Shown here: positions 24,744 through 44,396 of the stretch, in pieces
How positions within the stretch are numbered: the stretch's first letter is position 1
How the letters are laid out: the number at the start of each line of letters is the position of its first letter
Source: a bacterium
Lineage (GTDB): Bacteria > Actinomycetota > Coriobacteriia > Coriobacteriales > Eggerthellaceae
Assembly: GCA_963613135.1 (NCBI GenBank)
Contig: CAVDXU010000003.1
Location: 65,450-129,449 of the forward strand
Length of the DNA: 64,000 bases
Direction: 5' to 3'
Position numbers and translations under genes: made by a program
The notes under the pieces: model-generated
What the model was told of the DNA's origin: nothing
Databases searched by the model: none
Seen by the model: the letters and a program-made list of their open reading frames with translations, nothing else

Positions 24744-27269
24744 TTAGGACACCTCGATTCCTTCATAGCGAGCCGGGCGCCATGCACGATAGAGCGTCGT
24801 GTCCGCCGTGATGCGCAGCGACGAGGTCGGCGCTGTCTTTGCGTCTGCGTCAACATAAGCTCCTGAAACCGCCTTGGCTTCTCGCGCTTGCCCATGCGCC
24901 GAGTACCACAGCGAGCTTAAGGACGGCGCGGATACTCTGCTTGACCAAGGCACGAACCACGCCTCGCCAAGCAAGGAGGCGACATCGACCGCTCGCGTTA
25001 GTGCATTATCGCTGAATAGGGAGTGATTTGCGACCAGCTCGACCGTATCGCTCGTAAGCCGGTATTCAACGCGTGCCATGTTCCTTCCATAAAGGTTCAT
25101 CGATGTATCGAAAACAACCGTATTATCCTGAAATGGTTGAGTGCACGACGCATCGGTGAACCAGCATTCGAATTTCGAGCACTTTGGCTTTTTGCCTGCC
25201 GTGAAAGCCGCATCGTTCACCGTGTACGGCTTTCCGCGCTCCGCTTTATCCTGATAACACGGCTTCGCCTCCCCGTCAACAAAATAGCTGATGACGGCCT
25301 TACTACTTGCAATGCGAACGGGCTTCGAGAATGCCGCGCCACGATACGGGATCGACCCATGCACCGTCTTAGCCCGTGCGATGCAAGCGATATATTTGCC
25401 CTCGTGCGCAGATGAGGTTTGAAAATACTGAAGATTCGAGCCCTCGATGTAGCTGTCGATGTGTCTGAGGATTATCCGTATCCCGGAAAACTTGGTTCTC
25501 GGAGTTCCCGCCGTAGCCCCATCGCGAAACCACTCGCTCCAGCCGGATCCGTCGACATACACGCTATAACGCAACGAGAAATGCTCCTTCAGGCCGCCCG
25601 TCAGCTTCATCCAGACGCTCTCGTAGCCACCCACCCCGAATGCGCTTGTGATGATTTCCCCTGTCAAAGTGGTTCCTTCGATGCTCAGCTCCAAATTATC
25701 GATCCTCGCACCCAGGCCCATAACTCCTATAAGACCCGCAGCAGGCTGCCAGGACAGCCAATCACCGCCGTAAAGGTGAGCGCGACCGACGATCTCCGGC
25801 GCCTCGGAGAGCCAGGTCCCCTGTTCATCCGAGATAATCCAATCGTATTCGTGCATGATTCCGGAACCGGCAAGCCCATATCCGGAAAGTTTCGCATTCG
25901 GCCGCACGCGAGAAGTCCACTGAGCAGCAGACAGCAGCGTGCCGGCCTCAACGTCATCGGTTCCGCCAGAGGGCTCAAGATCCAGCGGGCTGCCATCGAT
26001 CGAACCGAAGCGAGCGTCCGATAAAAGCCATTTATGCGAATCGTTCGACCATTCCCCTGCAGGATACCCGTTTGAATGGAACTGCACGAGCGTGCCGGAA
26101 GCGCTTTCCCCCGACACGCGATCGAGCGCCATCCCCGAACAGTCCGCGAACAGCCATTGGGAGCTTCCGTCATCATGAACCCATAGCGACTGATTCCTGC
26201 TTTGCGCGACCGTATGCCAAAGTTGCGCCGCGCAGGGATAGGTGCACGGGCCACCACCCGCCTGATCAAGGGAGAGGGAGTCGTTGCCTAGGTGGACGGG
26301 GATAAAACGCAGCGTTCCCTTGACCGGATCATCGGTGTTTACCTGCGCTATCCACTGCTGGCTCGTCACGCATTCTTTTGTCGCGATAGCGCATTGCACG
26401 TCGGAGACGGCCTGCGCACCCGGCACAGCCAGACTCATATTCGGCCATGATAGCGGCGATACGTTCAGGACGCGATTACCCCAAGCAAGGTTACTTGAAA
26501 TCATGATCCTGTCAGCCTGTTGCTCCACCCATTGCGTGGTGTAGTTGATCGGGGGGTCGTCCCTGCGTGCGTAATACCAGTTCTTACCGTAATAGTAATA
26601 GTTCCAAAAACTTGATTTCAATCGAAACGAATGGGGCACGCATCGATCCTCGCGCCGAACCCAAACGCTGTAATCCGAACCAGGATAGCTACGATAGTCC
26701 GTCCAAACATGGGCACCATCTTTATGCAGCCCTTCTCCGACCTCGTTGTCTATGACCACAACATGGCTACCCTCGACAGCGCCCTCGCCTGGCAACCCAT
26801 CCACCCGATGCAAAAGCGTGTAGCAAGTGTCGTCGCCCGAAGTGGGATGCCAAAGATTGTAATCGGCATTGAGACCGTTATAGCTCCCACAAGCTATTTC
26901 GAGCTTCCCGGTGATGTGATGATACAACTCGGTGCAAAAATCGCACCGCATGGTGATCTTCGCCGCGGTGCGAATAAACTGCCTGGCTGAAATATCCCAT
27001 TCAACCCAAGGCGTCTTCGCGCATACCCATCGATCGGTGTACATAACGCCCCCAAGGCTTGCACCCCCGCCGGCTTCGAGCACGCCGATGCCGCTCCATA
27101 GCTTTGCGTCGTAATGCGATCCGTTACCGCGAAATATCAGCGCATTATCCCACCAGGGCTCATCGCCGAAAGCCAAACGTGGACGCCACAGCAAAAGGCC
27201 GCATGCAACACCCAAGCCAACCGCGAATGCGCGACGCGTCATCGCCCGTCCGGATCCATTCCCACCCAT
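24744..27269 (-). CDS. Tat-signal secreted multidomain protein (ricin-type lectin-like and ChW-like segments)
   Basis: TRRAF twin-arginine signal; QxW-like repeats; YSVYVDGSGWSEWFRDGATAGT segment; last gene of tad locus. Confidence 0.7.
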   Translation of the reverse strand: MGGNGSGRAMTRRAFAVGLGVACGLLLWRPRLAFGDEPWWDNALIFRGNGSHYDAKLWSGIGVLEAGGGASLGGVMYTDRWVCAKTPWVEWDISARQFIRTAAKITMRCDFCTELYHHITGKLEIACGSYNGLNADYNLWHPTSGDDTCYTLLHRVDGLPGEGAVEGSHVVVIDNEVGEGLHKDGAHVWTDYRSYPGSDYSVWVRREDRCVPHSFRLKSSFWNYYYYGKNWYYARRDDPPINYTTQWVEQQADRIMISSNLAWGNRVLNVSPLSWPNMSLAVPGAQAVSDVQCAIATKECVTSQQWIAQVNTDDPVKGTLRFIPVHLGNDSLSLDQAGGGPCTYPCAAQLWHTVAQSRNQSLWVHDDGSSQWLFADCSGMALDRVSGESASGTLVQFHSNGYPAGEWSNDSHKWLLSDARFGSIDGSPLDLEPSGGTDDVEAGTLLSAAQWTSRVRPNAKLSGYGLAGSGIMHEYDWIISDEQGTWLSEAPEIVGRAHLYGGDWLSWQPAAGLIGVMGLGARIDNLELSIEGTTLTGEIITSAFGVGGYESVWMKLTGGLKEHFSLRYSVYVDGSGWSEWFRDGATAGTPRTKFSGIRIILRHIDSYIEGSNLQYFQTSSAHEGKYIACIARAKTVHGSIPYRGAAFSKPVRIASSKAVISYFVDGEAKPCYQDKAERGKPYTVNDAAFTAGKKPKCSKFECWFTDASCTQPFQDNTVVFDTSMNLYGRNMARVEYRLTSDTVELVANHSLFSDNALTRAVDVASLLGEAWFVPWSSRVSAPSLSSLWYSAHGQAREAKAVSGAYVDADAKTAPTSSLRITADTTLYRAWRPARYEGIEVS

Positions 27270-27332: not shown

Positions 27333-28259
27333 CTACATCGAGGTCTGCAGAAAATTCAGCAGCCGAACCACCGTAGGCACCAGCACTAAAACCGTCGTCG
27401 GAGGCAGGAAGCACACGGACAAAATCACATCGAGCTTCGTCGGCATCTTGCGTATCTCCTCGAGCGCCGCAGCTTGAGCGCATTCACGCGCCAGCGACGA
27501 CTGGGCGGCAAGCCCCTCGGTAATGGACGATCCTTGGTTTATCGCCTGCAGAAGCTGCGCCACGAACGCCGAAACCTCTTGACTTTCGCAACGGTCGGCA
27601 AGATGACGAAGCGCCTTCTCCCGCGATATGCCCAACATGTTCACCTCGCGATCTACCAGCATAAATTCCTCCGAAAGAGGTCCTTCTAAACTGGAGGCCA
27701 CCTCCTTGAAGCACTGCTCGACAGGGGATCCGGCGGCAAGAGCGACGCCGAGCAAGTCCATCGCATCGGGTAGCGTTGCCTCGATCAGCGCCCGGCGCTC
27801 CTTCCTTTTAATATCAAGGAAGACATCGGATAAAAACCAGCCACCTGCAGCGCCCATCACAGCAATGGCGATGCCAAGCGGCGCGGACGCCCCCGCGACG
27901 AACAAGCCGAACCAGATCAAGGTTGCCGGTGCTGCGGCCGCAAGCAGCCGCAGCACGCGCCATGATTCCGGAGAGATGGACATGCCCGCAAGGCGCAAAC
28001 GCTCCCGTGTGCTCTGCATATCGGCCATGGTGGCGGGCGAGAAAGACTCGAGGGCCCCCGATATGCGCGCGATCATCGTATGCAGAGCGCTTTTCGCATA
28101 CCCCTTCGACGGACGGACGGCCTCTTCCTTTTGAGAACCTATCGCATCGAATGCTGCAGCCCTCTCCTTTGCCCCGCTCCATGTGCCAAGTGCCTCGTAC
28201 ACCGCAAGACCAGCCGCTATTGCCAATAACGAGAATCCTATGACGACGAACGATCCCAT
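27333..28259 (-). CDS. tadC: Tad pilus platform protein TadC (T2SSF family), set 2
   Basis: LPDAMDLL.V...AG, L.EEF, A...G..I...L, K.PTKL..FLPP. Confidence 0.88.
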   Translation of the reverse strand: MGSFVVIGFSLLAIAAGLAVYEALGTWSGAKERAAAFDAIGSQKEEAVRPSKGYAKSALHTMIARISGALESFSPATMADMQSTRERLRLAGMSISPESWRVLRLLAAAAPATLIWFGLFVAGASAPLGIAIAVMGAAGGWFLSDVFLDIKRKERRALIEATLPDAMDLLGVALAAGSPVEQCFKEVASSLEGPLSEEFMLVDREVNMLGISREKALRHLADRCESQEVSAFVAQLLQAINQGSSITEGLAAQSSLARECAQAAALEEIRKMPTKLDVILSVCFLPPTTVLVLVPTVVRLLNFLQTSM

Positions 28260-28339
28260 ATTCCCAGCCCTTCCTTATCCCTAGCCTCAAGCCATCCGCT
28301 CCGAATCAGTTCAACCTCAAAGTCCCTTCGACAGCCCTC

Positions 28340-29260
28340 TCAGGCAAGCGCGCGTTTGCACTTCGTCACACGACGGCAAGCGCAAACGCCGACGACCTCC
28401 ATTAAGGCCGCCCCGCCGAGAACGATCCAACCCAAAGGCTCTTCCCGATAGAATGCGGCGAAATCAGCGTTCAGAACGTACGACATGAGAAAAATCGCCG
28501 GCATCGAGCAGGCCACGAAGCCCTGGGCAAGCTTCGTGCCGGCAAGCTCGGTGGTCAGCTCCCGCTCGAGACGCATACGCGCATTGGCGTGAGCGGCGAT
28601 GGAGTCGAGCACGGCGGCAAGCGGCCCTCCAAAACGGCTCTGCACCCGCATCGCCGATGCAAGAGCCCGAACGTCCGCACAGCCCGTTCGTTTCGCCAGC
28701 AGCTCGAACGCCTCGGGCAAAGCCATGCCATAGGAAGCCTGAGCCAACACGCGCGTCAATTCCCCTTTCAGAGGATCGGGCGCGTGATCGGCGCAAACGC
28801 GCAACGATCGCTCAAGCGTCAGCGAGCTTTTCACGCTTGCCGACAACTGGGGCAGCAGGCGCACGAACTGCTCGGAGAACAACTCCCTGCGCTTCTTCAC
28901 GCCCCGCAAAACATAGAGCGCCGCAGCAAGCGGCGTTGCCGCCAGAGCGATCAAGGCGGCAAGAACCCCTGCAGCCAAGTTCGCGAAGGCCGCAAGCACC
29001 AGGCCGAGAGCGATGACGCTTGCCGTCCATACGAGCGGGCTCGCTTCAATGCCCGCATCCTCAAGCGAGCGGCCAATTAAGCCCGGCGATGACGATTCAT
29101 CTTTTTCGCTTTCACGTTTTCCCTGCTCGTAGAGCTGTTTAGAACTCAAGGCCTGATCTTTGCTTGCCGCCCGTTGCCTCCGCATCACACTATACGCAGC
29201 AGCCCCGAGAACTCCTGCCGCCAAAGCCATGAAGACGGCGATCAGATAAACCGCTCCCAT
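28340..29260 (-). CDS. tadB: Tad pilus platform protein TadB (T2SSF family), set 2
   Basis: RR..FSEQF..L, PDPLKGE, Q.RFGG.LA.VLD; follows TadA. Confidence 0.88.
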   Translation of the reverse strand: MGAVYLIAVFMALAAGVLGAAAYSVMRRQRAASKDQALSSKQLYEQGKRESEKDESSSPGLIGRSLEDAGIEASPLVWTASVIALGLVLAAFANLAAGVLAALIALAATPLAAALYVLRGVKKRRELFSEQFVRLLPQLSASVKSSLTLERSLRVCADHAPDPLKGELTRVLAQASYGMALPEAFELLAKRTGCADVRALASAMRVQSRFGGPLAAVLDSIAAHANARMRLERELTTELAGTKLAQGFVACSMPAIFLMSYVLNADFAAFYREEPLGWIVLGGAALMEVVGVCACRRVTKCKRALA

Positions 29261-29269
29261 AAGGCCTCC

Positions 29270-30586
29270 TCACGATTCGAAAAACCATGTCGGGTCGTAC
29301 CACACGCCCGCCGCCGCCATGCGTTCCTTGATGCGCTGGGGCTGCACCCCAAGAGCACGCCATCGGCCCATCACGCGCTCGAAAGCATCAATACCCTGCA
29401 CCTCGAAACGGAACAGCTCGGCACGAGGAATGACCGTCGAGCCCTCGGGAAGACGGTCGATCGCCACAACGCTCGTCACACGACGGGCGCCATCGCGCAT
29501 ACGCTCGACATGCACGATCAGGCCGCCTTGCAAGGACTCGGCTATCTGCTGGGCTATGACGTCGATCCCTAGATCAGCGTTCGCGTAGCCGACCATCGTG
29601 CGCAAGCGGCTCAGCGCATTGCTCGGGTCGTTCGCGTGAACCGTCGTCATCGAGCCCGGATGGTCGGTTTGCATGGCCTGAAGCATCTCGTACGCCTCGG
29701 CACCTCGGCACTCGCCGACGATGATGCGATCCGGCCGCCGACGCAGCGACAGCGCGACAAGCTCCCGCATGCCGACAGCACCCTGGCCTTCGACGTTCGC
29801 CTCACGCGTTTGCATGCGCTCGGTATGAGAGGCCCGCAAACGAAGCTCCGGCGTGTCCTCGATGGTGATCACACGCTCATCGTCGGCGATGAAACCCGAC
29901 AGCGCCCCCAGCAGCGTCGTTTTGCCCGAACCGGTTCCGCCCGAAATCACGATCGGGCATCGCGCACGGACCGCCGCACCCAAGAACTCGGCGATCGGGA
30001 CGGGAAGCGCGCCTTTCGCCACCAGGTCATCAATGCTCATCACATGCTCGCTGAACATACGAAGGTTAAGCGCCGGCCCGTCAGGGGCAAGTGGCGGGAT
30101 GATATACGTCGCCCGCGCCCGTCCCCCTGGAAGCATCGCGCACCCCATGGCATGGGATTCGTCGCAGCGCATCCCCGCCTGCTCGGCGATCTTGTTGATG
30201 ATACGCCGCAGATGGTCTGCGTCATCGAACGCTATATCGGGGCGAGCCTCGATGCGACCGGCGCGCTCGACGAACACCTTCGGCTCGCGAAAGGGCATCG
30301 CCGGATCGGAAAGATCGATCCCGCCCCCGTTGACCATGATCTCGGTGATCGACGAATCTTCAAGCAAAGGCTGCAAGGGCCCGTATCGAAGAAAGTCATC
30401 GACGATCGCGCGGCGAAGCATATCGAGGTCTACCGGCGACGCCTCAAGCCCCCATGATCGAGCCGTCTCTTCGACAAGGGCGGCGATCACGCTCTCGACA
30501 CCGTCGGTTTGGGAATCACCTTGCATGCGCAAGGCAAGCCCGTCCCGCACCGACCGTTTGAGCGCTAGCTCGATGGTCCTGTCCAT
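29270..30586 (-). CDS. tadA: CpaF/TadA pilus assembly ATPase, set 2
   Basis: [40 protein letters not shown]; alternative GTG start at 30595. Confidence 0.93.
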   Translation of the reverse strand: MDRTIELALKRSVRDGLALRMQGDSQTDGVESVIAALVEETARSWGLEASPVDLDMLRRAIVDDFLRYGPLQPLLEDSSITEIMVNGGGIDLSDPAMPFREPKVFVERAGRIEARPDIAFDDADHLRRIINKIAEQAGMRCDESHAMGCAMLPGGRARATYIIPPLAPDGPALNLRMFSEHVMSIDDLVAKGALPVPIAEFLGAAVRARCPIVISGGTGSGKTTLLGALSGFIADDERVITIEDTPELRLRASHTERMQTREANVEGQGAVGMRELVALSLRRRPDRIIVGECRGAEAYEMLQAMQTDHPGSMTTVHANDPSNALSRLRTMVGYANADLGIDVIAQQIAESLQGGLIVHVERMRDGARRVTSVVAIDRLPEGSTVIPRAELFRFEVQGIDAFERVMGRWRALGVQPQRIKERMAAAGVWYDPTWFFES

Positions 30587-30591
30587 GCCCC

Positions 30592-31437
30592 TCACACCTT
30601 CGCCGACGAAGCATCGACCGTGGCGATAAGCTGCAAGCTCACTCGGCCAGCAGATTGCGCTGCACGAATTTCGTCAGCCTGATCAGGAGTGACCTCAACG
30701 GTGACGGCTGCATAGGAAACGCCTTCGCCGGTCCCATCGCCCCCCGTCGAAAGCACTCGAGCGCTTTCGCACACTTCAACGACCGCGGCAGATCCCCCGC
30801 TTTCGGTTTCGACCGAAACGATGCGAACGTGATCAAGCGGCTTGATCTGGCCCGAAACGCCCGTTTCGTCGTCAACGGAAATGGACACGGCTTCCATGCC
30901 CTCGGAAAGGCTTCCCGCTATCCTGCCGTCACCGCCTGCCGACGCGATCGACCCGCCTGAGAGCTGCGTTCCGGCGGGAACGTCGACCAGCACGCGCGCT
31001 CCGACGATGCCCGCCGATGAGGCGCTCTGAGCGAGGTATACGCCCTCCGCACGATAGGCCTGCGGGACAAGCTGCGACGAAAGATCCGCCTCCGCGATCA
31101 CCTCTCCTGCATGAATCTCCCTCGTGGTCACGAGCACCGCAGCCTGATTACGCGTCGCTGCATCAACAGCGGTCGACGCCGAAGCAGACTGCCAAACGCC
31201 GAAAGCGATCGACACGAACGCAACTGCGACCGCCGCGGCTGCGATAACGGAAAGCTGCTTGAGCCTTTCGACCGCCTGCTTCTCCGCCTCGGACGCGCCG
31301 GCGCCATCACGAATAGAAGCTTCGTCCGCCCACGATGAGCTTGCAGCGTTTTTCGCACGAACCGAGCTCCTCTGTCCCGCACCGCGATGCACCGGCGCAC
31401 GACCGAAGCGACGCGATCCTGTCTTAGCTAGCGCCAT
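30592..31437 (-). CDS. cpaB: Flp pilus assembly protein CpaB/RcpC, set 2
   Basis: TM, SAF domain (VLV..REI.AGEVI..DL), GMEAVSISVD..GVSG.IKP.D.V, VTVEVTP.QA. Confidence 0.88.
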   Translation of the reverse strand: MALAKTGSRRFGRAPVHRGAGQRSSVRAKNAASSSWADEASIRDGAGASEAEKQAVERLKQLSVIAAAAVAVAFVSIAFGVWQSASASTAVDAATRNQAAVLVTTREIHAGEVIAEADLSSQLVPQAYRAEGVYLAQSASSAGIVGARVLVDVPAGTQLSGGSIASAGGDGRIAGSLSEGMEAVSISVDDETGVSGQIKPLDHVRIVSVETESGGSAAVVEVCESARVLSTGGDGTGEGVSYAAVTVEVTPDQADEIRAAQSAGRVSLQLIATVDASSAKV

Positions 31438-31465
31438 ATTCTCTCCTTCCCCGCCTGCAACGAGG

Positions 31466-32065
31466 TTATCCCTGATTTCCCTTCCGAACCTGCTCGACCA
31501 TCTCGGCGGGAAACCCATCGAGGCTCCCCACCGCGGTGAAAACTCCTTGCGAAGCTCCCTTGCCCGCCGAAAAGGTGTATTTGCCGCAAATGCGCTGATC
31601 TGGGCGCCAGACCTTTTGCGAAGCATAAGGGGCCGCCCGCACAACACGGCACGAAGCGGCGCTCACCGAGTCGAACCCGAGACCTTTGCCGAATATGGTG
31701 GGAACCTCTTCGGTAACCTGCATCCCGACGATCCACAACCGCTCCGATTCGGGAACCGATCCTTTCGGGGCTTCGTAAAACCACACGGTGAGATCTCCTC
31801 CAACACCCTGGCTGCGAACAGTCGAGGCGATCACGTCTGCCAGGAGCCCTCCTGGATCGTCATCGTATTTTGCCTGCTGAGACGTCACCGCATCCATGCA
31901 AGACGCCCGCGCCGCGTCAAGCGCTTGCTCCTGATGGCTTTTCGCGCAGTAGGCGATCCCAACATCGACCGCTGCCCCCATGATCGCCACCAAAACGAAT
32001 ATCGAAACGATGACGAGCGGAGCGATATTGCCGCGCTCGCACCTTGCTGCAGCCAATCGTTTCAT
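31466..32065 (-). CDS. TadG-like pseudopilin (Tad N-terminal domain)
   Basis: ERG|NIAPLV hydrophobic helix, AVDVG, QALDAA; ATGA-coupled to upstream gene. Confidence 0.8.
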   Translation of the reverse strand: MKRLAAARCERGNIAPLVIVSIFVLVAIMGAAVDVGIAYCAKSHQEQALDAARASCMDAVTSQQAKYDDDPGGLLADVIASTVRSQGVGGDLTVWFYEAPKGSVPESERLWIVGMQVTEEVPTIFGKGLGFDSVSAASCRVVRAAPYASQKVWRPDQRICGKYTFSAGKGASQGVFTAVGSLDGFPAEMVEQVRKGNQG

Positions 32066-32532
32066 GCGCCCACCTGCACTTCCACAGCCCGCTCGTCGTT
32101 GCATGAAAACGAAACGTGTCGGGAAAAGCCCTCGTTCGACCACCCCGGGATGACGATGATCGAGGATGGCCGATAAAGCGCATCGAAGGACACATCCGTG
32201 GCCACCAAGCGCGTTTTCAGCCCGCCTTCCGCCTCGTCCCATGCCGCGCCATCGCGCCTTGTCCTGACCACGACGTTCTTCACCTCGATCGAGGATGCAT
32301 CGAGCTGGCTTACCTGCCCGACAATCTCGTCCGCGACGAAACGCTCTTTGTCCCCTGCAGCCACCAGACCTGCAGTGTCGATGCGCAAGCTCGCCTGGCT
32401 GACCTCAGAGAAGAACACTTCGGCGGAGAACATCGTCAGGGCAACCTGGATGATGCCGAACACGATCGCGAGCAGCAGCGGCATCACGCAAACGAACTGC
32501 ACGATTTCGCTTCCCGACTCTCTACGAGACAT
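32062..32532 (-). CDS. TadE-like pseudopilin (Q+5 variant)
   Basis: ESG|SEIVQFVCVMPLLLAIVFGIIQ; SD GGAGG. Confidence 0.8.
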   Translation of the reverse strand: MSRRESGSEIVQFVCVMPLLLAIVFGIIQVALTMFSAEVFFSEVSQASLRIDTAGLVAAGDKERFVADEIVGQVSQLDASSIEVKNVVVRTRRDGAAWDEAEGGLKTRLVATDVSFDALYRPSSIIVIPGWSNEGFSRHVSFSCNDERAVEVQVGA

Positions 32533-33043
32533 GTGCGCCTCCCTCCGGAGCGTATGCCCGACGCTGCGCGAGCGCCTCGAGGGCGAACATGCCATCGCTC
32601 GATCCGCCCGCTAACGCGACCGCACGACCGACGGGGGTGAGATAAGGTGCTTTGAGCTTCGCATGCGCCTTCACATCGCATGCGGCGAGCCGGACGCTTT
32701 CCTGCATGAACGAGTCGCTCTCCTCGGAATACATCCGGCGCACAAACCCCTCCTCGGACGCCTCGCCCACGACGACGTCGACGATAAGATCGGATCCGTC
32801 GAGGGCGGGGACGGCCGCAAGAGTCGCACGTCGCGCCGCATCTGCGGCAAGCGGCGTGCGGGCACCTTGCGACACCTGATCGCAACTCCAGCTTAGGGCG
32901 GCATATGAGGCATCGGTTAGCATCATCTGGCAGATCACGACCCGCCCGAAATCAAGCGCCGCGCATAAGAACACCGCTAGCAGGGGCAGCACCATCACGA
33001 ACGTCACGACGCTGCTGCCGGCCTCCGAAGAGCCTTGCGTCAG
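32522..33043 (-). CDS. TadE-like pseudopilin; start codon uncertain (CTG proposed)
   Basis: EAG|SSVVTFVMVLPLLAVFLCAALDFG; C-terminal YLTP motif. Confidence 0.7.
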   Translation of the reverse strand: MTQGSSEAGSSVVTFVMVLPLLAVFLCAALDFGRVVICQMMLTDASYAALSWSCDQVSQGARTPLAADAARRATLAAVPALDGSDLIVDVVVGEASEEGFVRRMYSEESDSFMQESVRLAACDVKAHAKLKAPYLTPVGRAVALAGGSSDGMFALEALAQRRAYAPEGGAHVS

Positions 33044-33078
33044 GAGACTTCGCTTCCTGCATCCTGCAGGAAAAGCCG

Positions 33079-33318
33079 CTATTGAACCCCGGTGGCGGCG
33101 CCCTTCGTCACCGATTTGAACATCTGGGTGATCGAATCCCCCGCTCCCTTGATCGCGGTGTTGATCTGCCCTTGCAGCGCCATAAGCGCCGCACCGAGGC
33201 CGACCGCGAAGCCGAGCACGATGACCACCTGCACGATCTCCGAACCGCCGTCCTCTTCCCCGCAGACCGCCTGCGCGTAGACCTTCTTGAGAGCACCCTT
33301 CATGTTCGCCTTTTCCAT
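33079..33318 (-). CDS. Flp-like major pilin, set 2 (non-canonical Q+5)
   Basis: 79 aa; EEDGG|SEIVQVVIVLGFAVGLGAAL then amphipathic helix; strong purine-rich RBS; downstream hairpin TTCCTGCA-GGA-TGCAGGAA. Confidence 0.75.
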   Translation of the reverse strand: MEKANMKGALKKVYAQAVCGEEDGGSEIVQVVIVLGFAVGLGAALMALQGQINTAIKGAGDSITQMFKSVTKGAATGVQ

Positions 33319-33435
33319 GCCTCTCCCTTTCCTGTTTTTCTTCCTTTTCCGTTTTCCCAATACCGCCATCTTCGCGGTATCGCCTGATCAAGCACTGACA
33401 TCCGGCCGGTCTGTCACGCGCTCGCATACGGCCTT

Positions 33436-34326
33436 TCATACCGTCACCATCCCTCCGAACACCAGCCACAGAGCCAGAAACGGCGCCATGGGAATCCCGT
33501 CGCGCCTACCGAGCCTGCGCGAAACCAAGCCGACTATCGAGAACGCCGATGCCGCAACGTAGCAAGCCAAAGCACCCGCCAAGGCGCCCGGCCCTGTCGC
33601 AAGGGACAGCGCCACCATGCAACGCATATCCCCTCCGCCCACGGAGCGGGCGTTCTGCCCGAAAAGATGCCGGGCGATCCAGCAAACGATCAGGACGACC
33701 GCCACCGCGACGACGCCGCTTCCAAGTGCCGGCAGCCCGCCCCGCAGCAATTGGAATACGAGGCCGAACGATGCAAGAGCCGCGCAGGATTCAAGCGGGA
33801 TCATCCGCGCGCGAAGATCGCACGCGATCCCGCATAGCATCGCGACGATGCACCCGGCAAGCGGCACGGTCTGCTGCAAAGGCATGCCGGAGGCCGGCAG
33901 GATACCGAACGCGACAGCGCCGCCAAGGCCCAAGCCAACTCGCTGCAAAACGCTCGGCTGAAACGAGCATCGAGCCACCTGATCGCTCTCCGAACGTTTA
34001 GCCAGCGACGGATCGGCGTCAAACCCCGCATCAGCGAGCAGCTGCGCACGCTCTCGCGCAAGCACGCCGCCGCGCGCCGCCGCAAGCGCATCGGCGAGCC
34101 AAATGCCGATCGAGCCATCATCGCCGGCGTCGCTTGGGCTCGGCAGCTTATCCGGATGCAGTCGTTGATACCGTTGAAGTTCCTCGTACGAATCCATCCA
34201 CCAGGAATAACTTCTGCGATAAGCGCGGCGAAGCATCAGATCTGACAGCACCGGCACCAAAGCAGACCCCAGAACCGCCCCCGATACCGCCCACAACGCC
34301 AGCAAGCCCGCGAAATACGACGTCAT
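33436..34326 (-). CDS. Prepilin peptidase (A24 family) with HA-like insertion
   Basis: Catalytic aspartates in CDLRARMIP and GGGDMR; C-terminal IPMAPFL; multi-TM. Confidence 0.9.
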   Translation of the reverse strand: MTSYFAGLLALWAVSGAVLGSALVPVLSDLMLRRAYRRSYSWWMDSYEELQRYQRLHPDKLPSPSDAGDDGSIGIWLADALAAARGGVLARERAQLLADAGFDADPSLAKRSESDQVARCSFQPSVLQRVGLGLGGAVAFGILPASGMPLQQTVPLAGCIVAMLCGIACDLRARMIPLESCAALASFGLVFQLLRGGLPALGSGVVAVAVVLIVCWIARHLFGQNARSVGGGDMRCMVALSLATGPGALAGALACYVAASAFSIVGLVSRRLGRRDGIPMAPFLALWLVFGGMVTV

Positions 34327-35078
34327 GCTCCCACCGCACATAAATCATGCTGAGATGCCTGCGCATGGCGCGGGGAAGCGGCCTGACGAGAACGGCTTTC
34401 CCGATCGCGAGACCGCGAACCGTGCATGCCGGTCGCGCATTCCGAAGCATCCGGATAGCGCACCTCAACGCGTGCACCTGGGGAGGTTCCCTGATGGAAA
34501 CGAGCACACGCGCGGGACCGCGCAGCATCAATCTGCTGATCTCGCGAATTCGCATGCGCGAGCGAATCCCGCACATCATGAAGCTCGATCCTCAAAACGA
34601 TCTCCCCGCTTCGCGATGGCACCGAAATCAGCTGCCCGGAAGATGGCTGCGGCTCACGCGCTTCCTCGGCAGCCAGCTCATCCACCACGCAAGCCGCCGC
34701 TACTCGATCCGCCCGGGCCGAAGCTGATGCCGACGGCGAAGCCGATGCCGACGGCGCTTCGGCGTTCACCGGAGCCTCGAAATCCCTCGACGCGGCAGGC
34801 GACGTTACGCCAGCCGGGGTACCCAAACGCCCCGACTCGCCCACCAAAGAAGACGGCGCGGAAATCGCCGGGCGCGCCACCGCCAAGGCCGGCACCTCCA
34901 TAACCGTGGGCGATTCCTGCTTGCCCCCAAGAGAAGCAGCAGCGCCCGATGGTGCCCCTGGCACCGGACGATGAAGCGCCACCTGAGCGTTTTGACCCGG
35001 ATCGAATCGGTGCAAGCACCCATAGCAAACCTCGGCATCGTCGAACGATCCCGCCTTGCAGACCGGACATTCCTTCAC
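34323..35078 (-). CDS. Hypothetical protein with N-terminal zinc ribbon
   Basis: MKECPVC..FDDAEVCYGCLHRF then Ala/Pro/Ser-rich linker; GTGA/ATGA overlaps on both sides. Confidence 0.75.
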   Translation of the reverse strand: MKECPVCKAGSFDDAEVCYGCLHRFDPGQNAQVALHRPVPGAPSGAAASLGGKQESPTVMEVPALAVARPAISAPSSLVGESGRLGTPAGVTSPAASRDFEAPVNAEAPSASASPSASASARADRVAAACVVDELAAEEAREPQPSSGQLISVPSRSGEIVLRIELHDVRDSLAHANSRDQQIDAARSRACARFHQGTSPGARVEVRYPDASECATGMHGSRSRDRESRSRQAASPRHAQASQHDLCAVGA

Positions 35079-35410
35079 GAATCATCACCTCCACCGCGTA
35101 CGACGAGAACTTGATCGCCACCTTCGAACCAAGAGCCGTCGGACGCCGAAAACCTTTCCAATACCCCAACCGCCTGCCGGCATCTCAAATGCCTGCGCGG
35201 CGCAACACTTCGATACGACTCGATAACCGCCCCATCCGCCGCAACAAAAGCGATATCGATCGGATATTTCATACCGAACGTGTGGACGCTCCTGCACGGC
35301 ATGAGCAGCATGACGTTTCCTTCCGGCCCGGGCCGAGATCGCAAAAGACCTTTCATCCGCGCCGAAAACCGGCCGGCCAGCAGCAACAATGACGACGCGC
35401 CCTTCCCCAT
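35075..35410 (-). CDS. DUF192 family protein
   Basis: RMKGLL, PCRSVHTFGMKYPIDIAFV, VLE motifs. Confidence 0.85.
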   Translation of the reverse strand: MGKGASSLLLLAGRFSARMKGLLRSRPGPEGNVMLLMPCRSVHTFGMKYPIDIAFVAADGAVIESYRSVAPRRHLRCRQAVGVLERFSASDGSWFEGGDQVLVVRGGGDDS

Positions 35411-35429
35411 AAGCTCACCTTCCCTTTCC

Positions 35430-35987
35430 TCATGAAACTTGAATCACCACGCTTACCGAACTCCCGATCTGGGCGCACATCAGAAACGCCCAGCGATAGC
35501 AACCGCTCGCCTTCGTGAACGACGCGCAGGTCGCAGAGCCGCTTTCCATGCGTCTCCAGCCTTTCTGCTCAAGTTCGGTCACCACCGAGGAGAGCACATC
35601 GGGCGCTGCACCCTCGCACGTCCATCCGATGATCCGCGACTCCTCGTCGATACGGCCTTCGTTGCGGCCCGCCAAAGATGCGACCTCGTCGGCGAAGGCG
35701 TCAGCCCGGCTTGCCGCAGCCAGCTCATAAGCGTCGCTCGACCCATCGATAACCGCTCCGTACCCCACGGTCGAAGAGCCCGCCGCCTGGATCTGCCGAA
35801 GGACCGGCTCGACGAATTGTTCCGCTGAACGACTTGCGCAAACTGCTCCAATCAGGCAAAACACGGCAAGGCAGGCAACGATAACCCTTCGGCCGGAAAC
35901 GCCAAGGCGCTTCTGCGCGGCACGCCCGCGCTCGACGCGCCGCGCGCGCTCGTCAACAGGCGCACGACTCCGGCGCGGAATCTTCAT
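35430..35987 (-). CDS. Hypothetical membrane-anchored protein of tad locus
   Basis: Basic N-terminus, single TM, L..KGW motif; ATGA-coupled. Confidence 0.7.
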   Translation of the reverse strand: MKIPRRSRAPVDERARRVERGRAAQKRLGVSGRRVIVACLAVFCLIGAVCASRSAEQFVEPVLRQIQAAGSSTVGYGAVIDGSSDAYELAAASRADAFADEVASLAGRNEGRIDEESRIIGWTCEGAAPDVLSSVVTELEQKGWRRMESGSATCASFTKASGCYRWAFLMCAQIGSSVSVVIQVS

Positions 35988-36418
35988 GCGAGCACCCCCG
36001 GCTTGTAGCAGTCCACGGTGAACTCCTCTCTGTGCACCAGCTTCGGCAACGCGACGCCGAAGATCGAATCCTTCAGACCGAGCCCGAACAGCGTCGGCAA
36101 GAACTCGACGGTGCCGGTAAAGGTCGTATGCCCGCCCGATGCCGCCCGCGCCGACACATGCACGCTCACGTTGTCCTGACTCGCGAATGCTTCCGCAAGA
36201 TCTTGCTCGATAGCGACGCAGCTTTGCGCAACATCCTGCCCATATGCAGGCGACGCAGCATGCACGCGCGCGAGATCGCGCAAATCGTTATCGAACGCCG
36301 CACAAGTGCCAAAGAATGTCATCGCGTTCACGGCTATCACAGCGATCGCGATCATGACCGGCAACGCAACCACGAACTCGATCGTCATCTGCCCATCGAA
36401 ATCCCTCATCAATCCCAT
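35984..36418 (-). CDS. TadE-like pseudopilin
   Basis: DG|QMTIEFVVALPVMIAIAVI canonical E+5. Confidence 0.85.
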   Translation of the reverse strand: MGLMRDFDGQMTIEFVVALPVMIAIAVIAVNAMTFFGTCAAFDNDLRDLARVHAASPAYGQDVAQSCVAIEQDLAEAFASQDNVSVHVSARAASGGHTTFTGTVEFLPTLFGLGLKDSIFGVALPKLVHREEFTVDCYKPGVLA

Positions 36419-38535
36419 GGCCGTGACCCCGATATGCTCGAATGAACATCAATCAGCCTCTCCGCAAGCCGCTCGACGAAGCTAGGAGCGGCGTCTTTAA
36501 CCGCCTCGGGAAGGCTGATGGTGATGGGGATGGACGCCCCGCCGCCCCCGAAATCGAAAGAGGCGACCTCGATCGTTCCGTCAGACGATTCGATAGCATC
36601 GGATGCACGCGACCCCACAGCTCTGACCAGGGCCGCAAACGGATCATTCGACGCAAGCGGGTTCTCAACCGCAACCTTCTTCAACTCAAGCAGCCGTGCC
36701 GAGAAAGCCCCATCGTCGCTTGACGCAACATGCGCCGTGCTCACGACTACCGGGCGCAGGGCATCCAGGTTCGCCGGGGCAAAACCAGCCGCCTCGACAA
36801 CGGACGAGAACGTGGATGCCGCCCAGGTCCCCAATCCGCTCGGGCCGGCAAGCGGCACGGAATTGAGCCCGTCACGAATCGCGCCCTCGAGAGCTTCCTG
36901 ACCGCCCCCATACACCTCGAGCATCCCCGACCACACATCGAGTACCACGCCCGCCGCGCCAAGCGCAGACCCTTTATCCTTCAGGCCGTCGGTGAGCGAG
37001 GCGATGACGCTTTTCCCTTCGCCTGACGGATCAGCGATAAGCGTGGCGGCGGAAATCGACACCCGCGCCCCGAGATTGCCGGTCGCCTTGACGAACGTTG
37101 ACTCGAATCCCTTTGCGGGAGCATCCTCTCCCGTATTCGCGACAAGCACCACCACCCCGTTCGAACCTGGCGGATTCGCGTCGATGCGCATCTTCGCCGC
37201 ATGCGAAAGCAAATTCCCTATCGCGTCGAAGACGCCGCCTGCACGCCGTTTCACCTCCGATTTCGCCGGGCGGGCACGTTCAAGCGCATCCTGATAATCC
37301 TGTGCAGCACGGGCGACGCAGGCATAGTGGTACTCGAAACCGTTTTCGATCGCGCTCGAGGCAGCCGCGACCTTGCCCATGCTCGATCGAGAGAAGCCGC
37401 ATTGCGAACAGGGCACATAACCGTCATCCGGAATGTCCTGTATAGACGCCGATCCCTGCGCCCCCGATGCATTCGGGCAGCCATCCCAGGCATGCAAGGT
37501 CGTCTTCCCATCCTCGACGGTGCAGGGGTACACCCGATCGGTATACAAGGACGTATCCTGCACCTCGGAGGCGTTCTTCGGCACCGTCGGAAAATAGCAG
37601 ACGAAACTGTCCCCGAGATCATGCGCGTAAGCCTGCGCGATCATGTCGCACGCATATGCGTAGAAACGCTTGCGCAGGGCTGATTCCGCCTGCTCCCCCA
37701 CCGAAGACCCCGTCGGCGCCTCCTGAGCCAAACGCCGTGGATAGTACGCTTTCGCACGGTTGACCGCCACCAAGAACGACCAGGTGTCAATGCTTGAATA
37801 CAGCGGGTTATCCGAGCCCGCAAGCCCTGCCAACGTCGCCGCGCGTTCCGCCATGCAATACGCCGGATAGACGCCGCAATCGTGCTCGAACGCCTCCTGC
37901 TTCGCGCGCTGCGCATCTTTTGCCGCATCATCGGCGATGCGAGCCTGCTCGCGAATCTCCGAAGCGTTATCCCTCGCCTCGTCCAGCGCATCGCTCAATG
38001 CGCCGTCATCGGTTGGCGCGGATATATCCGAAACCTCTGACGGAACCGACAAAGCCAGCGCGACATAGGATGAATCCCTTCCATTCGCCGCTGCGGTCGA
38101 AGCAGCCTCGACCGAGCATAGGAACGGCAACGCCTTCTGAACCCGGTTCAACCCGTCGGCCGCACGGCGCGAGAACTTGTCTCGAGCTTCGCCGATACGG
38201 TACGAAGATTCGAGGAGCTTCTCGCCGATCGATTGCCCCCCGGGGATGCACATCGCCGCAATCCCGATCCCGCATGCCGACGCGCTCGTCAAGCTGAGCG
38301 ACAGCACGACGGCATCGCACAGTCGCACCACGATCATGTACTCCGCAACCACGTTCTGCGCCGCCAAAGCGGAGGCATCGGCCACCGATTGCACGCGCGA
38401 TGAGATCGAATTCACGCGGTAGACCTGAGCTGACGAGAAAATAAGGGACAACGTCAGCAGCAGCGACAGCACGACGGAGAGCGTCGTCATGCCTTCCTCG
38501 TCCCGGAAAAGGGCTCTTCCCGTAAAACGCCTCAT
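36409..38535 (-). CDS. Large TadG-like pilus-associated protein
   Basis: DEEG|MTTLSVVLSLLL, QSVADASALAA Tad motif; 708 aa; Cys/His motif. Confidence 0.78.
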   Translation of the reverse strand: MRRFTGRALFRDEEGMTTLSVVLSLLLTLSLIFSSAQVYRVNSISSRVQSVADASALAAQNVVAEYMIVVRLCDAVVLSLSLTSASACGIGIAAMCIPGGQSIGEKLLESSYRIGEARDKFSRRAADGLNRVQKALPFLCSVEAASTAAANGRDSSYVALALSVPSEVSDISAPTDDGALSDALDEARDNASEIREQARIADDAAKDAQRAKQEAFEHDCGVYPAYCMAERAATLAGLAGSDNPLYSSIDTWSFLVAVNRAKAYYPRRLAQEAPTGSSVGEQAESALRKRFYAYACDMIAQAYAHDLGDSFVCYFPTVPKNASEVQDTSLYTDRVYPCTVEDGKTTLHAWDGCPNASGAQGSASIQDIPDDGYVPCSQCGFSRSSMGKVAAASSAIENGFEYHYACVARAAQDYQDALERARPAKSEVKRRAGGVFDAIGNLLSHAAKMRIDANPPGSNGVVVLVANTGEDAPAKGFESTFVKATGNLGARVSISAATLIADPSGEGKSVIASLTDGLKDKGSALGAAGVVLDVWSGMLEVYGGGQEALEGAIRDGLNSVPLAGPSGLGTWAASTFSSVVEAAGFAPANLDALRPVVVSTAHVASSDDGAFSARLLELKKVAVENPLASNDPFAALVRAVGSRASDAIESSDGTIEVASFDFGGGGASIPITISLPEAVKDAAPSFVERLAERLIDVHSSISGSRPWD

Positions 38536-39050
38536 CGCGCCCACGCCCCGATCCAATCTTTCGGGCTTGCGCCCTGAACGGCATTCGAAACCCAATCAGG
38601 CTGAGATTGCCGCGAATGCTCGACACGCACGGTCAACGTGCCGTCATCGTTCAAAGACCCGGCAAGCGCCGTGCCGATATCGAGCAGCGGCAAAGGTTTG
38701 ACACGACCGGAAATCGCGACGCGAACATGATCCGAGCATTCGTCTCCCTCGGTTTCGATCTCCCAAGAGCATTCGTCCCCATGAACATGGAAGCAATCCA
38801 CCGGTGGAATGGAGCCGAGCCGATGACGGATGAACGCGTCGACGGATCCCGACATGTCGCCCGAGACGTCGGTTTTCGTCATCAACAAGCGACAGGCATC
38901 CGTCGCGGCCGCCTGCATGACCATCCGGTCGTACAGGACGATTCCCGGCTGGATGAGCAGCAGAAGCACGCAGAACACGACCGGGATGAGAAACGCCGCC
39001 TCGACCGTTGCCTGACCTGCCTCCTCGCATCGCCCAAAAGCCCCGACCAT
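38532..39050 (-). CDS. TadE-like pseudopilin
   Basis: EAG|QATVEAAFLIPV..., MQAAA..ACR. Confidence 0.87.
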   Translation of the reverse strand: MVGAFGRCEEAGQATVEAAFLIPVVFCVLLLLIQPGIVLYDRMVMQAAATDACRLLMTKTDVSGDMSGSVDAFIRHRLGSIPPVDCFHVHGDECSWEIETEGDECSDHVRVAISGRVKPLPLLDIGTALAGSLNDDGTLTVRVEHSRQSQPDWVSNAVQGASPKDWIGAWAR

Positions 39051-39102
39051 GCTGAAACCTCCTTTCCACACGAACCTTTGATTAGGATCCGAAAGCCCTT
39101 GC

Positions 39103-39360
39103 TCAATACAGCAGCACGTCCGCTGCCGCCTGGGGGGATATGCCATGCACGTGATGAGACGCCGAAGACAGCGCATGCTCGACGAACATGCCGCCGGAAA
39201 TGCCGTGCCACATCGCGCCGAACCCCAGGCACAACGCGAGAAACGCAGCGGTAACGACCGCGAACTCAACCGTCGACTGGCCAACGTCGGGCGAGGGCAC
39301 CCACCTCAAGCCGTGCTTCGGTCGACGAATCCGCAACGCCCTCCGAGTCCTTCCTTGCAA
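39103..39360 (-). CDS. Small pilin-like protein
   Basis: VG|QSTVEFAVVTAAFLAL; TTG start with GGAGG SD (start uncertain). Confidence 0.78.
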   Translation of the reverse strand: MQGRTRRALRIRRPKHGLRWVPSPDVGQSTVEFAVVTAAFLALCLGFGAMWHGISGGMFVEHALSSASHHVHGISPQAAADVLLY

Positions 39361-39403
39361 TGCACGCCTCCGCTTGCGATAGCTTCGCTTTCGCAAGCGG
39401 AGC

Positions 39404-39619
39404 CTATAAGCTGTCAAACCCTGAAACGATCGCATCCCAAAGCTCCTGCAGCTTCGGTCGAAACAGCGTGATCGCAAGAATGGCTATCACCACGAGCACG
39501 CCGACCAGAATGGCATACTCGGTCGTGCCCTGGCCGTCCTCGCGCCTGCGCAGCGCACTGAACCGACACACCGCCTTCGCAAGGACGGAACGATACACAT
39601 CCATAACCGATTCCAACAT
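39404..39619 (-). CDS. flp: Flp family major pilin, set 1
   Basis: REDG|QGTTEYAILVGVLVVIAI canonical Flp motif (E+5, Y+6). Confidence 0.92.
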   Translation of the reverse strand: MLESVMDVYRSVLAKAVCRFSALRRREDGQGTTEYAILVGVLVVIAILAITLFRPKLQELWDAIVSGFDSL

Positions 39620-40549
39620 TTAGATTCCTCCCATCAATTCCAGCAAAACCGGCCCGAGCACCATGATCAGCATGGCCGGCAAAATCAACGTTCCCGTCGG
39701 TATCATCATTTTGACCGGGGCTTTCGCAACACGCTCCTCGACACGCGCCCGGCGTTCGGCTCGCGCCTGCGCCGCAGCCTGCTCAAGGCATTCGCCGAGC
39801 GCGGTACCGAAACGCAGCGATCTAACGACCGATGACATCGTGCGCGCGAAAAGGGGTGAATCGTACGAAGCCGCAAGAGCTTTCAATGCCTCCTCGCGCG
39901 TCGCCAAACCGAACGACCACGCTCTTTGAGCAGCCGCGCACTCACGCGCCAGCATGGAGTCGAAATGACTGGTATACAGCTCTAAGCTTCGATCGAACGA
40001 CAGGCCGCTTCGAACACCGAGCGCGATCACCTCGAGCATCTCCGACATACCTTTCTCCAAGGCCAAAGATCGGGCCTCGGCAAGCGCCGCAAGCGTTCGG
40101 CGAGGCAAAGTGAGTCCCCAAAACGCGCCGACGACAAGGCCGAGAAGCGCAAGCTCGTTCGAGATCGTGCATCCGACCAAGCCGCAAACCGCAGCCCCCG
40201 CGAACGCGAACCGAAGCATCGTTTCGACATAAGCATCCTCGCCTACCTCAACCGACGACCCCACGGTTGAAACCGCATTCGCAAAGCGCCCGCGAGCACC
40301 GCTGAACAGCCGCTTCGAAGCGATCGGCTTCATCGTCCGCGCAGCAAGGCATCTGCTTATCGTGACCATGCGCCGCAAACACCAGGCCGTATCCCAACCA
40401 AGATGATTCGCTGCGGGAACATCGGGAGCGCGCGCCCGCGCTCGGGAACCGCGCCGGGCAACCCGCCTGGCAACCGATGTGGCGACAAGCGCGCCCGACA
40501 CACCTGAAAGCAACACCGCGACCACCGAAAGCAAACCTACCGAGTTCAT
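39620..40549 (-). CDS. tadC: TadC (T2SSF family), set 1
   Basis: SGLSFD, FGT.L...L, KAPVKMMIP..LILPA. Confidence 0.88.
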   Translation of the reverse strand: MNSVGLLSVVAVLLSGVSGALVATSVARRVARRGSRARARAPDVPAANHLGWDTAWCLRRMVTISRCLAARTMKPIASKRLFSGARGRFANAVSTVGSSVEVGEDAYVETMLRFAFAGAAVCGLVGCTISNELALLGLVVGAFWGLTLPRRTLAALAEARSLALEKGMSEMLEVIALGVRSGLSFDRSLELYTSHFDSMLARECAAAQRAWSFGLATREEALKALAASYDSPLFARTMSSVVRSLRFGTALGECLEQAAAQARAERRARVEERVAKAPVKMMIPTGTLILPAMLIMVLGPVLLELMGGI

Positions 40550-41502
40550 CACGCCACCTCCACGGCCAGCATCCGGCGAACGGCCAAAACGCCCGCAGTC
40601 TCCATCGCAATCGCAAGCGAAAGAAGGCCCATGCCGGCGATACTCGTGAAGAATGGTTCCAAAAACCCATCGCTGATCAGCGAGAACAATGCCACCAAAA
40701 GAAACGGCATCGCCGTCACCACACGAGCGGACAAGCGAGCCTGGGCCGTTTGCACCTTCAGCGAGCGGCGAAGCTCGCACTCGCCCTCGACCGTATCGCG
40801 CGCCGCATCCAAAACCTGCCGCATGCTGCCGCCCGCCTCATGCTGCACATCGAGCGCAACCGCAATGAAGGCAAGCTCGGAAGACGTGTCGCCACGGCGG
40901 ATCTCGCTGATCGCCGACGATGCCGGCTGACCCGTCTCAAGCCTGTTCGCCGCCGACAAAAAGCGCTTTCCCAACGGCCCTTTCGTTTCGCTTGCCAGCT
41001 GACGGAAAGTCTGAAGCAGGGAAAACCCGGCCTGAAAGCATGCGCTCATCGCATGAAGCGCATCCGGCACCGCATCGCGCAGAGCCTCGCAACCCTTCTC
41101 AGCTCGCGATCGCACCCGGGATGCCGCCAATACCGCAAGCAGCGCTGGAACCGCAAGAGCCGCAACCGGTGACTGCGCGATCGCCCCCGCAACCAGCGCC
41201 GAAAGCGCGCATGCCCCGAATAGCGACGACAGGGATTCTTCGGCGGAAAGCCGGATCCCGCGATCACCCAGCAAACCGCTCAAGCCCGTCGCGAGCGAAG
41301 CCACCCGCTCATTGCGCGATAAGGCGGTGGCGATCGGAAGCATCGGCTTCGCCAGCTTTCTCAGCGCGAACCGGCCTTTCCCTTCCTTGCGACCCGCACG
41401 ACGGGCGCCGTTGGCGATGCCGTTGCCCACGCGCCAGGCAAGCGTAGCCCCGCAGGCAAACGCAAGCGCCATCGCTATGCAGCATTCAAATTCCTGCGCC
41501 AT
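40549..41502 (-). CDS. tadB: TadB (T2SSF family), set 1
   Basis: VPDAL..AGFSL.Q, QHEAGG.M..VLD, TAQARLSARVV..MP. Confidence 0.9.
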   Translation of the reverse strand: MAQEFECCIAMALAFACGATLAWRVGNGIANGARRAGRKEGKGRFALRKLAKPMLPIATALSRNERVASLATGLSGLLGDRGIRLSAEESLSSLFGACALSALVAGAIAQSPVAALAVPALLAVLAASRVRSRAEKGCEALRDAVPDALHAMSACFQAGFSLLQTFRQLASETKGPLGKRFLSAANRLETGQPASSAISEIRRGDTSSELAFIAVALDVQHEAGGSMRQVLDAARDTVEGECELRRSLKVQTAQARLSARVVTAMPFLLVALFSLISDGFLEPFFTSIAGMGLLSLAIAMETAGVLAVRRMLAVEVA

Positions 41503-42797
41503 GCTTCCACCTCCTCGTCGTCTATTCCGCACGAACGCGGCAGATCATCGATCCATGCGGGAACCGCCAGCCAGCACCCGGCATGCTGCGAAGCGTCTCG
41601 GGAGAACAGCTGCTTCACCGTGCAAGCGCGCCGCGCCCCATCGAAGGAAAGCTCCGCGACCTCGCTCACGAAACGATGGCCATCGAGGGCGCGCGCCGTT
41701 TGCACGACGACATCGAATGCGCTCGCAGCGTTCGCCTCTATGACATCGACCGGCAAGTCGACCCCATAGCGAACCATGGTCACCAGACGGGAGAGCACAT
41801 CGCTCGGCGAATTCGCATGCAACGTGGTGAGGGATCCATCATGCCCGGTCAGCATTGCCTGGAGCATGTCGGTGGCCTCCGCCCCGCGGCATTCCCCGAC
41901 GACGATGCGGTCCGGGCGCATGCGCAATGCGTTGATCACCAGATCTCGAATGGTCACCTCGCCGGCACCCTCGGCGTTTCGCGGCCGAGCCTCAAGCCTC
42001 ACCACATGAGGGTGCTCCAGAAAGCGAAGCTCTACCGTATCCTCTATGGTCACGATGCGCTCCCCTTCGGGAATGCAGCATGACATGGCGTTGAGCAGCG
42101 TCGTCTTGCCCGACCCGGTGCCTCCGGATACCACGATGTTCTTCCGCGCCCGAACCGCCCAAGTCAGAAACGTCCTCATCGACTCATCCATCGAACCCGA
42201 GCGAACCATTTCCTCCAACGTGATCACGCGGTCGCTGAACTTGCGAATGGTCACCACCGGGCCGTCTGGGGCAAGCGGTGGAATGATCACATGCACGCGG
42301 TGTCCTTCCGGCAACCGGGCGTTAACCATCGGCGACGATTCATCGATGCGCCGTCCCAGCGGGCCGAGCACGCGATCGATCAGAGCCCGTAGATCCGACG
42401 CATCCGCAAACGATCGATCGAACTTCATCAACCGGCCTTCGCGCTCGAAGAACACGTCGGCAGGACCGTTGATCATGATCTCGGTAACGGATGGGTCCTC
42501 TAAAAGCTCCTCGATCGGCCCGAATCCCATCACCTCGTCGAGCAAAGCGCGCGAGAGTTCACGTCTGCGAGATTCGGCGACATCGCGCCACGCTTCAAGC
42601 TGGAACGCCTGACGGCATGCACCGAGTAGCTCGCTGCGAGCTTGACCTGGCCGAACCGCCAGCAACCGTGCGATTTCATCGGTCGTGACGAAGCGCGCTA
42701 TGTCCTCTTTCAGGTGCGGCAGCGTCATCCCCGCCGTCGCCGTCGCAGGCGCTTTGTCATCGATCATCTGCGCTTGCACTCGTTTCGCCAACGACAT
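41475..42797 (-). CDS. tadA: CpaF/TadA pilus assembly ATPase, set 1
   Basis: [63 protein letters not shown]. Confidence 0.95.
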
Positions 42798-42798
42798 A

Positions 42799-44364: not shown

Positions 44365-44396
44365 GGATCGTCTCCTTTCCTGCAAGCAAACCTGCT

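Follow-up and report, generated by a model that had tools for sequence, protein, structure and literature searches.

A prepilin peptidase gene from an Eggerthellaceae bacterium joins two Pfam families, Peptidase_A24 (PF01478) and the helicase-associated (HA) family (PF03457), and represents a real, conserved and lineage-restricted new architecture of a known enzyme. The gene is located in the window, i.e., the whole 64,000-nucleotide stretch of DNA that was analysed, between two tandem Tad modules. A single HA-family domain is inserted between the first two transmembrane helices (TM1 and TM2), and the genomes that carry it also carry the second of these modules. The features of the locus are collected in Table 1.

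Table 1. Features of the peptidase gene and of the adjoining Tad modules (positions in the window).
Feature	Position	Strand	Remarks
HA-bearing prepilin peptidase gene	33436..34326	-	296 aa; alternative in-frame ATG at 34341 gives 301 aa
TM1	34237..34314	-	approximately residues 10-35; from hydropathy; basic RRAYRR next
Single HA (PF03457)-family domain	34021..34203	-	residues 47-107; probably cytoplasmic; core kept, QR pair lost
Linker ending in RCSF	33952..34020	-	aligns to the second CxxC of PilD; possible relic
Peptidase_A24 domain	33562..33849	-	catalytic D175 (33817-33819) and GGGD D238 (33628-33630)
Module 1	34323..45041	-	RcpC, TadZ, TadA1, TadB1, TadC1, Flp1, TadE-like genes, DUF192, zinc-ribbon gene
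Module 2 major Flp-like pilin	33079..33369	-	cleavage motif G|SEIVQ; identified by motif and position, no Pfam match
Module 2 minor pilins	31466..33082	-	two TadE-like, one TadG/Tad-like; PF07811, PF13400
Module 2 machinery	27333..31647	-	RcpC/CpaB, TadA2 ATPase, TadB2, TadC2; TadZ absent
841-aa putative surface protein	24744..27269	-	travels with module 2; weak ChW, ricin-B and Flg_new matches

The open reading frame of the peptidase spans positions 33436-34341 (-) and encodes 301 residues when counted from the ATG at 34341. The ATG at 34326 is the likelier start, since it is preceded by GGTGGGAGC and overlaps the stop codon of the upstream gene; residue numbers refer to the 301-residue form unless stated otherwise. 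The whole protein matches only the two Pfam families mentioned, and no NCBIfam model covers it. The Peptidase_A24 match (residues 165-260, E 6.3e-8) reaches 33.5 bits for a cut-off of 26.5, and both catalytic aspartates, D175 and D238 of the GxGD motif, are present in 52 of 52 aligned homologues. Membership of the A24 family makes the protein a putative prepilin-cleaving enzyme. No CxxC was found in its N-domain, a single CxxC occurs in the N-domain of two of the 52 homologues, and PF06750 has zero matches in the source genome (assembly 88% complete), where this gene is both the sole A24 and the sole HA match. The marks of a PilD-type enzyme (two N-domain CxxC pairs, PF06750) are thus missing from the window peptidase. 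The first-pass annotation was right in calling it a prepilin peptidase and in reporting the CxxC pairs absent.

By its sequence, the insert belongs to the HA family. The 61 residues that the same annotation had singled out as HA-like correspond exactly to positions 34021-34203 (-), or to residues 42-102 when counted from the ATG at 34326. The Pfam HA profile aligns with residues 48-107 of the whole protein over profile positions 5-64 of 64 (E 1.7e-5, 25.5 bits). The outcome is borderline, as the segment alone (E 3.3e-6, 27.7 bits) falls just below the curated cut-off of 28.4 and lies above it, at 29 bits, in the genome-wide search. PF03457 is also matched at E ≤ 1 by 14 of 18 homologues (best 4.5e-8). 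A profile built from 39 inserts retrieved 4416 matches at E ≤ 0.001 from 1.84 billion proteins. The best 150 of these comprise 142 repeat arrays (4-20 repeats) and eight single-copy peptidase-type proteins, and all 18 multi-repeat matches that were scanned are PF03457 arrays, located on SF2 helicases, TniQ or a sigma factor. With the profile made from canonical HA repeats (n=1258), the window segment scores 50.6 bits, against a maximum of 6.9 bits for shuffled segments (1664 of 2000 scored) and 3.8 bits for reversed inserts (37 of 39 scored), a control that is partly circular because the 1258 repeats were gathered using the insert profile. An artefact or a chance match is ruled out by the homologue matches, the insert-profile search and the shuffled and reversed controls.

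In a sequence search of the PDB, the HA structure 2KTA ranked second (E 0.4), spanning the whole domain. Foldseek aligned the predicted domain with 2KTA at a weak E of 7.8, though with the best TM (0.44/0.56) and rmsd (2.9) of the list, and the VIA Z of 4.2 is level with that of unrelated helical chains; neither the whole model nor the HA domain gave a significant Foldseek match. The modelled fold is consistent with the HA identity but gives no independent proof of it.

The protein is ordered as TM1, a basic stretch, the HA domain, the linker ending in RCSF, TM2, TM3 ending at D175, and finally the remaining part of the peptidase, which includes GGGD238. In the AlphaFold model (pLDDT 93.0 for the whole protein and 93.6 for the HA domain), TM1 and the first HA helix are predicted to form one continuous helix (H2-56 in the 296-residue numbering). 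Its top fold match among 48,161 chains is the archaeal GxGD preflagellin peptidase FlaK/PibD (3S0X; Z 8.8, rmsd 3.6, 135 aligned residues; next Z 6.1). The likeness covers model residues 152-294, whereas the aligned range of FlaK has nothing matching TM1-HA-TM2. A profile alignment to nine same-family PilD-type peptidases (probability 97%) brings TM1 and TM2 into register, so that the insert occupies the zinc/methylase slot of PilD, as had been proposed from the first reading of the gene. PilD/ComC (PF06750 and PF01478) has the same TM1-cytoplasmic domain-TM2-peptidase layout, a similar length and the two catalytic aspartates, but a C4 zinc-finger loop takes the place of the HA domain. As this zinc finger is absent, the window peptidase is not expected to methylate pilins. 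In the same alignment, RCSF falls on the second CxxC of PilD, and two homologues have CxFC at this position, which is no more than a hint that HA took the place of the zinc finger. TadV/CpaA of Tad (T4c) pili is likewise encoded in a tad locus and devoid of a methylase domain; compared with it, the window peptidase adds two TM helices and the 60-residue cytoplasmic HA domain. One source labels close relatives of the window peptidase CpaA. The location of D175 and the positive-inside rule lead us to infer that the HA domain faces the cytoplasm, where leader cleavage takes place; the topology of prepilin peptidases and the side of leader cleavage are described in the available part of PMC10191384.

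Flp/TadE pilins, TadA, TadB, TadC, RcpC and the peptidase are encoded in one locus, which identifies it as a Tad (T4c) system. Module 1 is near-universal in Eggerthellaceae. In the window, TadZ, a recruiting hub according to the accessible part of PMC6668835, is encoded by module 1 only, and the module 2 stretches examined contain no match to it (the labels Flp2, TadG and "module 2" were coined in this analysis). Relatives of the 841-aa putative surface protein also adjoin divergent module 2 loci.

Three genes of module 1 deserve mention. The zinc-ribbon gene (34323-35078 (-)), with an N-terminal CxxC-x10-CxxC and a low-complexity body, overlaps the peptidase start; whether or not HA is present, almost every module 1 locus has it immediately before the peptidase. 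The DUF192 gene (35075-35410 (-)) is found with module 1 and also in many of the module 2 loci that stand alone (L104, L111, L112, L116, L119, L121 and L184), suggesting a Tad-related role. The third (36409-38595 (-)) encodes a 728-aa protein whose N-terminus has a pilin motif of the Tad type and whose body is rich in Cys; it is conserved across the loci of the family and has no family match besides a weak Tad match.

The HA insert was found in 54 of 301 Eggerthellaceae genomes. A class-wide sample of 401 genomes contained it in 13 members of Eggerthellaceae, and the 355 genomes of other Coriobacteriia families gave no real match; a spurious-looking one (G480, E 4.8e-4) was rejected, as it covers 50 residues of a frame that looks unrelated and has neither TM1 nor peptidase. 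Within the 301 family genomes, the Pfam HA profile matched nothing but these inserts (27 matches, spread over 26 genomes). Plasmid and viral-contig searches gave no match, and the ESM Atlas no usable one. TadA is present in 285 of the 301 genomes, and a module 2-type TadA, defined by a full-length alignment at E 4e-86 or better, in 55 among the matches listed (44 close, 11 divergent; 203 weaker matches lie outside the list). Very divergent module 2 ATPases reach only ~1e-70, yet all but two of the other genomes have at most one TadA match. All 54 insert-bearing genomes fall within these 55; the remaining one, G107, is an 80% complete assembly in which the contig stops short of the peptidase. 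In the 39 double-locus HA stretches, some of which share a genome, Flp2 always comes after the peptidase. Nineteen of the 22 HA-less relatives that were fetched sit at the module 1 end, behind the zinc-ribbon gene and with no module 2 gene after them (in two of the HA-less loci, the contigs stop within ~2 kb). The HA-less peptidase of L063 keeps TM1 and ADELLRRAYRR and goes straight to TM2, resembling a clean deletion. Records L053-L057 are labelled Prevotella, Butyrivibrio, Eubacterium, Anaerovoracaceae or archaeon; in peptidase and gene order they agree with the genus of the window, and the labels are probably wrong.

Module 2 loci that stand alone and have HA peptidases are found elsewhere on the chromosome, and mobile regions contain additional copies. 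The copy of genome G130 (L116) lies within an ICE with a relaxase, a coupling protein, PrgI and a serine recombinase; this element (L116 and L187, G130:C1:3712000-3750000) carries the Tad module as cargo, along with Abi_2, AbiH and an SNF2/methylase gene. The L116 insert is shortened, and that of L119 is unrecognisable by profile. In G168, TM1 and HA form their own 148-aa gene, overlapping a short peptidase gene. Four more TM1+HA protein clusters (143-144 aa, 68-71% identity) end at the same place, suggesting that the TM1+HA module can work as its own chain; as DNA, the split form is known from one locus, a metagenome scan having returned no genomic context for the other four clusters. A frameshift origin of this form is unlikely in view of the shared end and the ~30 extra residues at the junction. 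L115 (G294:C17) represents a third type of Tad locus, which possesses TadZ, TadA, TadB, TadC and DUF192 of its own.

HA-bearing and HA-less peptidases form one supported clade (100/97, 100/99), apart from PilD-type and other short peptidases. The trees have 50 rows, after removal of 19 near-duplicate, long-branch or out-of-clade rows, and 20 further rows (short or PilD-type) lie outside them. In the best trees, the HA-less members are nested among the HA-bearing ones, which suggests repeated loss jointly with module 2; the AU tests gave p 0.29 and 0.61, and a single HA clade was not rejected (p 0.29). The co-occurrence of HA and module 2 corresponds to two (supported branches) to four independent contrasts, and the sign test gave p 0.5, with trait b taken as identical to trait a because there was no row in which they differed. 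With so few contrasts, the strict tie is suggestive rather than statistically shown, and co-inheritance as one block explains it equally well.

The domain could accordingly be a structural passenger, which replaced the zinc loop once, does no more than stabilise or space TM1 and TM2, and moves with module 2 as a block with no module-specific partner. Besides the small number of contrasts, this would account for conserved residues that are those of the core, for HA-less orthologues with short linkers or without TM1, and for the shortened or degenerate inserts of L116 and L119. We nevertheless consider it unlikely. Judging from dN/dS over 11 close orthologues, the insert is under purifying selection, with a value (0.15) as low as that of the catalytic domain (0.11). 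It is retained in divergent stand-alone loci at 20-30% peptidase identity and even when it is a separate gene, and among the matches listed, none of the 54 HA-bearing genomes lacks module 2. The segment is conserved among the orthologues that carry it, a point on which its first description had depended.

Like canonical HA domains (2KTA; repeats of SF2 helicases, TtrA, TniQ and nucleases), the window domain has a three-helix core with W, H, LG.W, G.L..ER and L..G; it differs in being single, membrane-anchored, neutral to acidic and fused to a protease. Fusions with TniQ and nucleases are described in the PF03457 literature, as far as available. Compared with the 1258 canonical repeats, the inserts retain the core W, Y/F, H, G.W, G.L, ER and L..G. 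The QR pair, which is the best conserved basic feature of the canonical repeats (Q 74%, K/R 94%, with R 87%), is replaced by A in 56% and L in 33% of the inserts, its flanking lysines are also lost, and Asp or Glu immediately precedes the lost position in 77%. The mean net charge is -1.1 for the inserts (n=35) versus +2.9 for canonical repeats (n=1250), and -6 for the window domain. The QR pair and basic surface, which the inserts lack, are a consensus feature measured in this analysis and not a curated criterion of PF03457. In the divergent copies L076, L095 and L184, the second helix is still basic.

The large loss of the QR pair and of basic charge argues against a link with nucleic acids. 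A nucleic-acid sensor is therefore improbable, whether the HA domain, by binding cytoplasmic DNA or RNA, were to control the maturation of pilins or to hold DNA at the base of the pilus and so serve uptake or conjugation; the acidic residue before the QR position, the negative net charge and the single copy, compared with 4-20 repeats in 142 other top matches, all stand against it. The first-pass annotation had envisaged a link to a nucleic-acid or protein signal. Its nucleic-acid half does not fit the neutral or acidic domain, and the protein-signal half fits better.

The reading that we prefer, tentatively and at somewhat less than an even chance, is that of a repurposed cytoplasmic docking domain serving the module 2 Tad subtype, as a candidate role with a presumed partner. 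The peptidase would be the cell's Flp/TadE prepilin peptidase, its two membrane-edge aspartates cutting the leader on the cytoplasmic side. In the model, the HA domain would be held rigidly beneath the membrane through the helix continuous with TM1. The HA fold would have been kept and its basic face exchanged for a neutral or acidic one, yielding a protein-docking piece. Docking might tie pilin processing to the TadA2/TadB2/TadC2 machinery, a set that lacks a TadZ hub. Loci without module 2 have no HA domain either, and their peptidase is kept for module 1.

The pilins themselves offer another possible partner. In all 16 double-locus examples, position +5 of the module 2 major pilin (G|SEIVQ) is Gln instead of Glu. 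The acidic HA face by the active site might act as an exosite binding the basic leaders of module 2 prepilins, so that one peptidase handles pilins without the usual Glu+5. The HA domain, leader and catalytic aspartates would lie on the same membrane side (putative topology; PMC10191384, available part), and the peptidase is the only A24 in G000 (the source genome), G236 and G076, so that it must serve both modules there, provided that the assemblies are complete. However, the HA-linked pilins of L101 and L102 carry the canonical Glu+5, and the module 1 Flp leader is equally long and basic and is served by HA-less peptidases in other genera, which leaves the exosite a rather poor prospect. Several divergent loci have pilins with GG|QTHTVE or GG|QSHTVE, with Glu at +6.

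Beyond the docking role, it is conceivable, though we would not expect it, that this is a mobile TadZ-less Tad subtype whose peptidase is also an organiser, its helicase-derived HA domain linking the cutting of leaders with the assembly motor or, in the basic copies, with DNA. If so, this prepilin peptidase would possess a domain for regulation or scaffolding, and HA would have a direct function outside nucleic-acid enzymes.

In the part of PMC10191384 that is available, prepilin peptidases either combine peptidase with methylase or have the peptidase only, and they are described as working alone. The selected foreign cytoplasmic domain makes a third layout, suggesting a possible coupling between the maturation of pilins and something else. 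No publication joining "helicase associated domain" with "prepilin peptidase", and none that treats the fusion described here or the tad loci of Eggerthellaceae, was found in a search with most subscription journals outside its range (related literature, in the parts available: 10.1101/2024.11.13.623437; PMC4322843). Since the database cluster P0008 already bears both Pfam labels, the HA and A24 pair is visible in annotation yet undescribed, as far as we found. With its single copy and its natural with/without and split variants, it offers a test bed for HA, the function of which is still only proposed. According to record titles, it is carried by the culturable gut genera Eggerthella, Gordonibacter, Paraeggerthella and Senegalimassilia, and the tie to an ICE-borne second Tad system bears on attachment or DNA exchange in these bacteria. 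The source genome also contains a ComEC-family match with one TGA inside (G000:C1:82175-82975 (-)).
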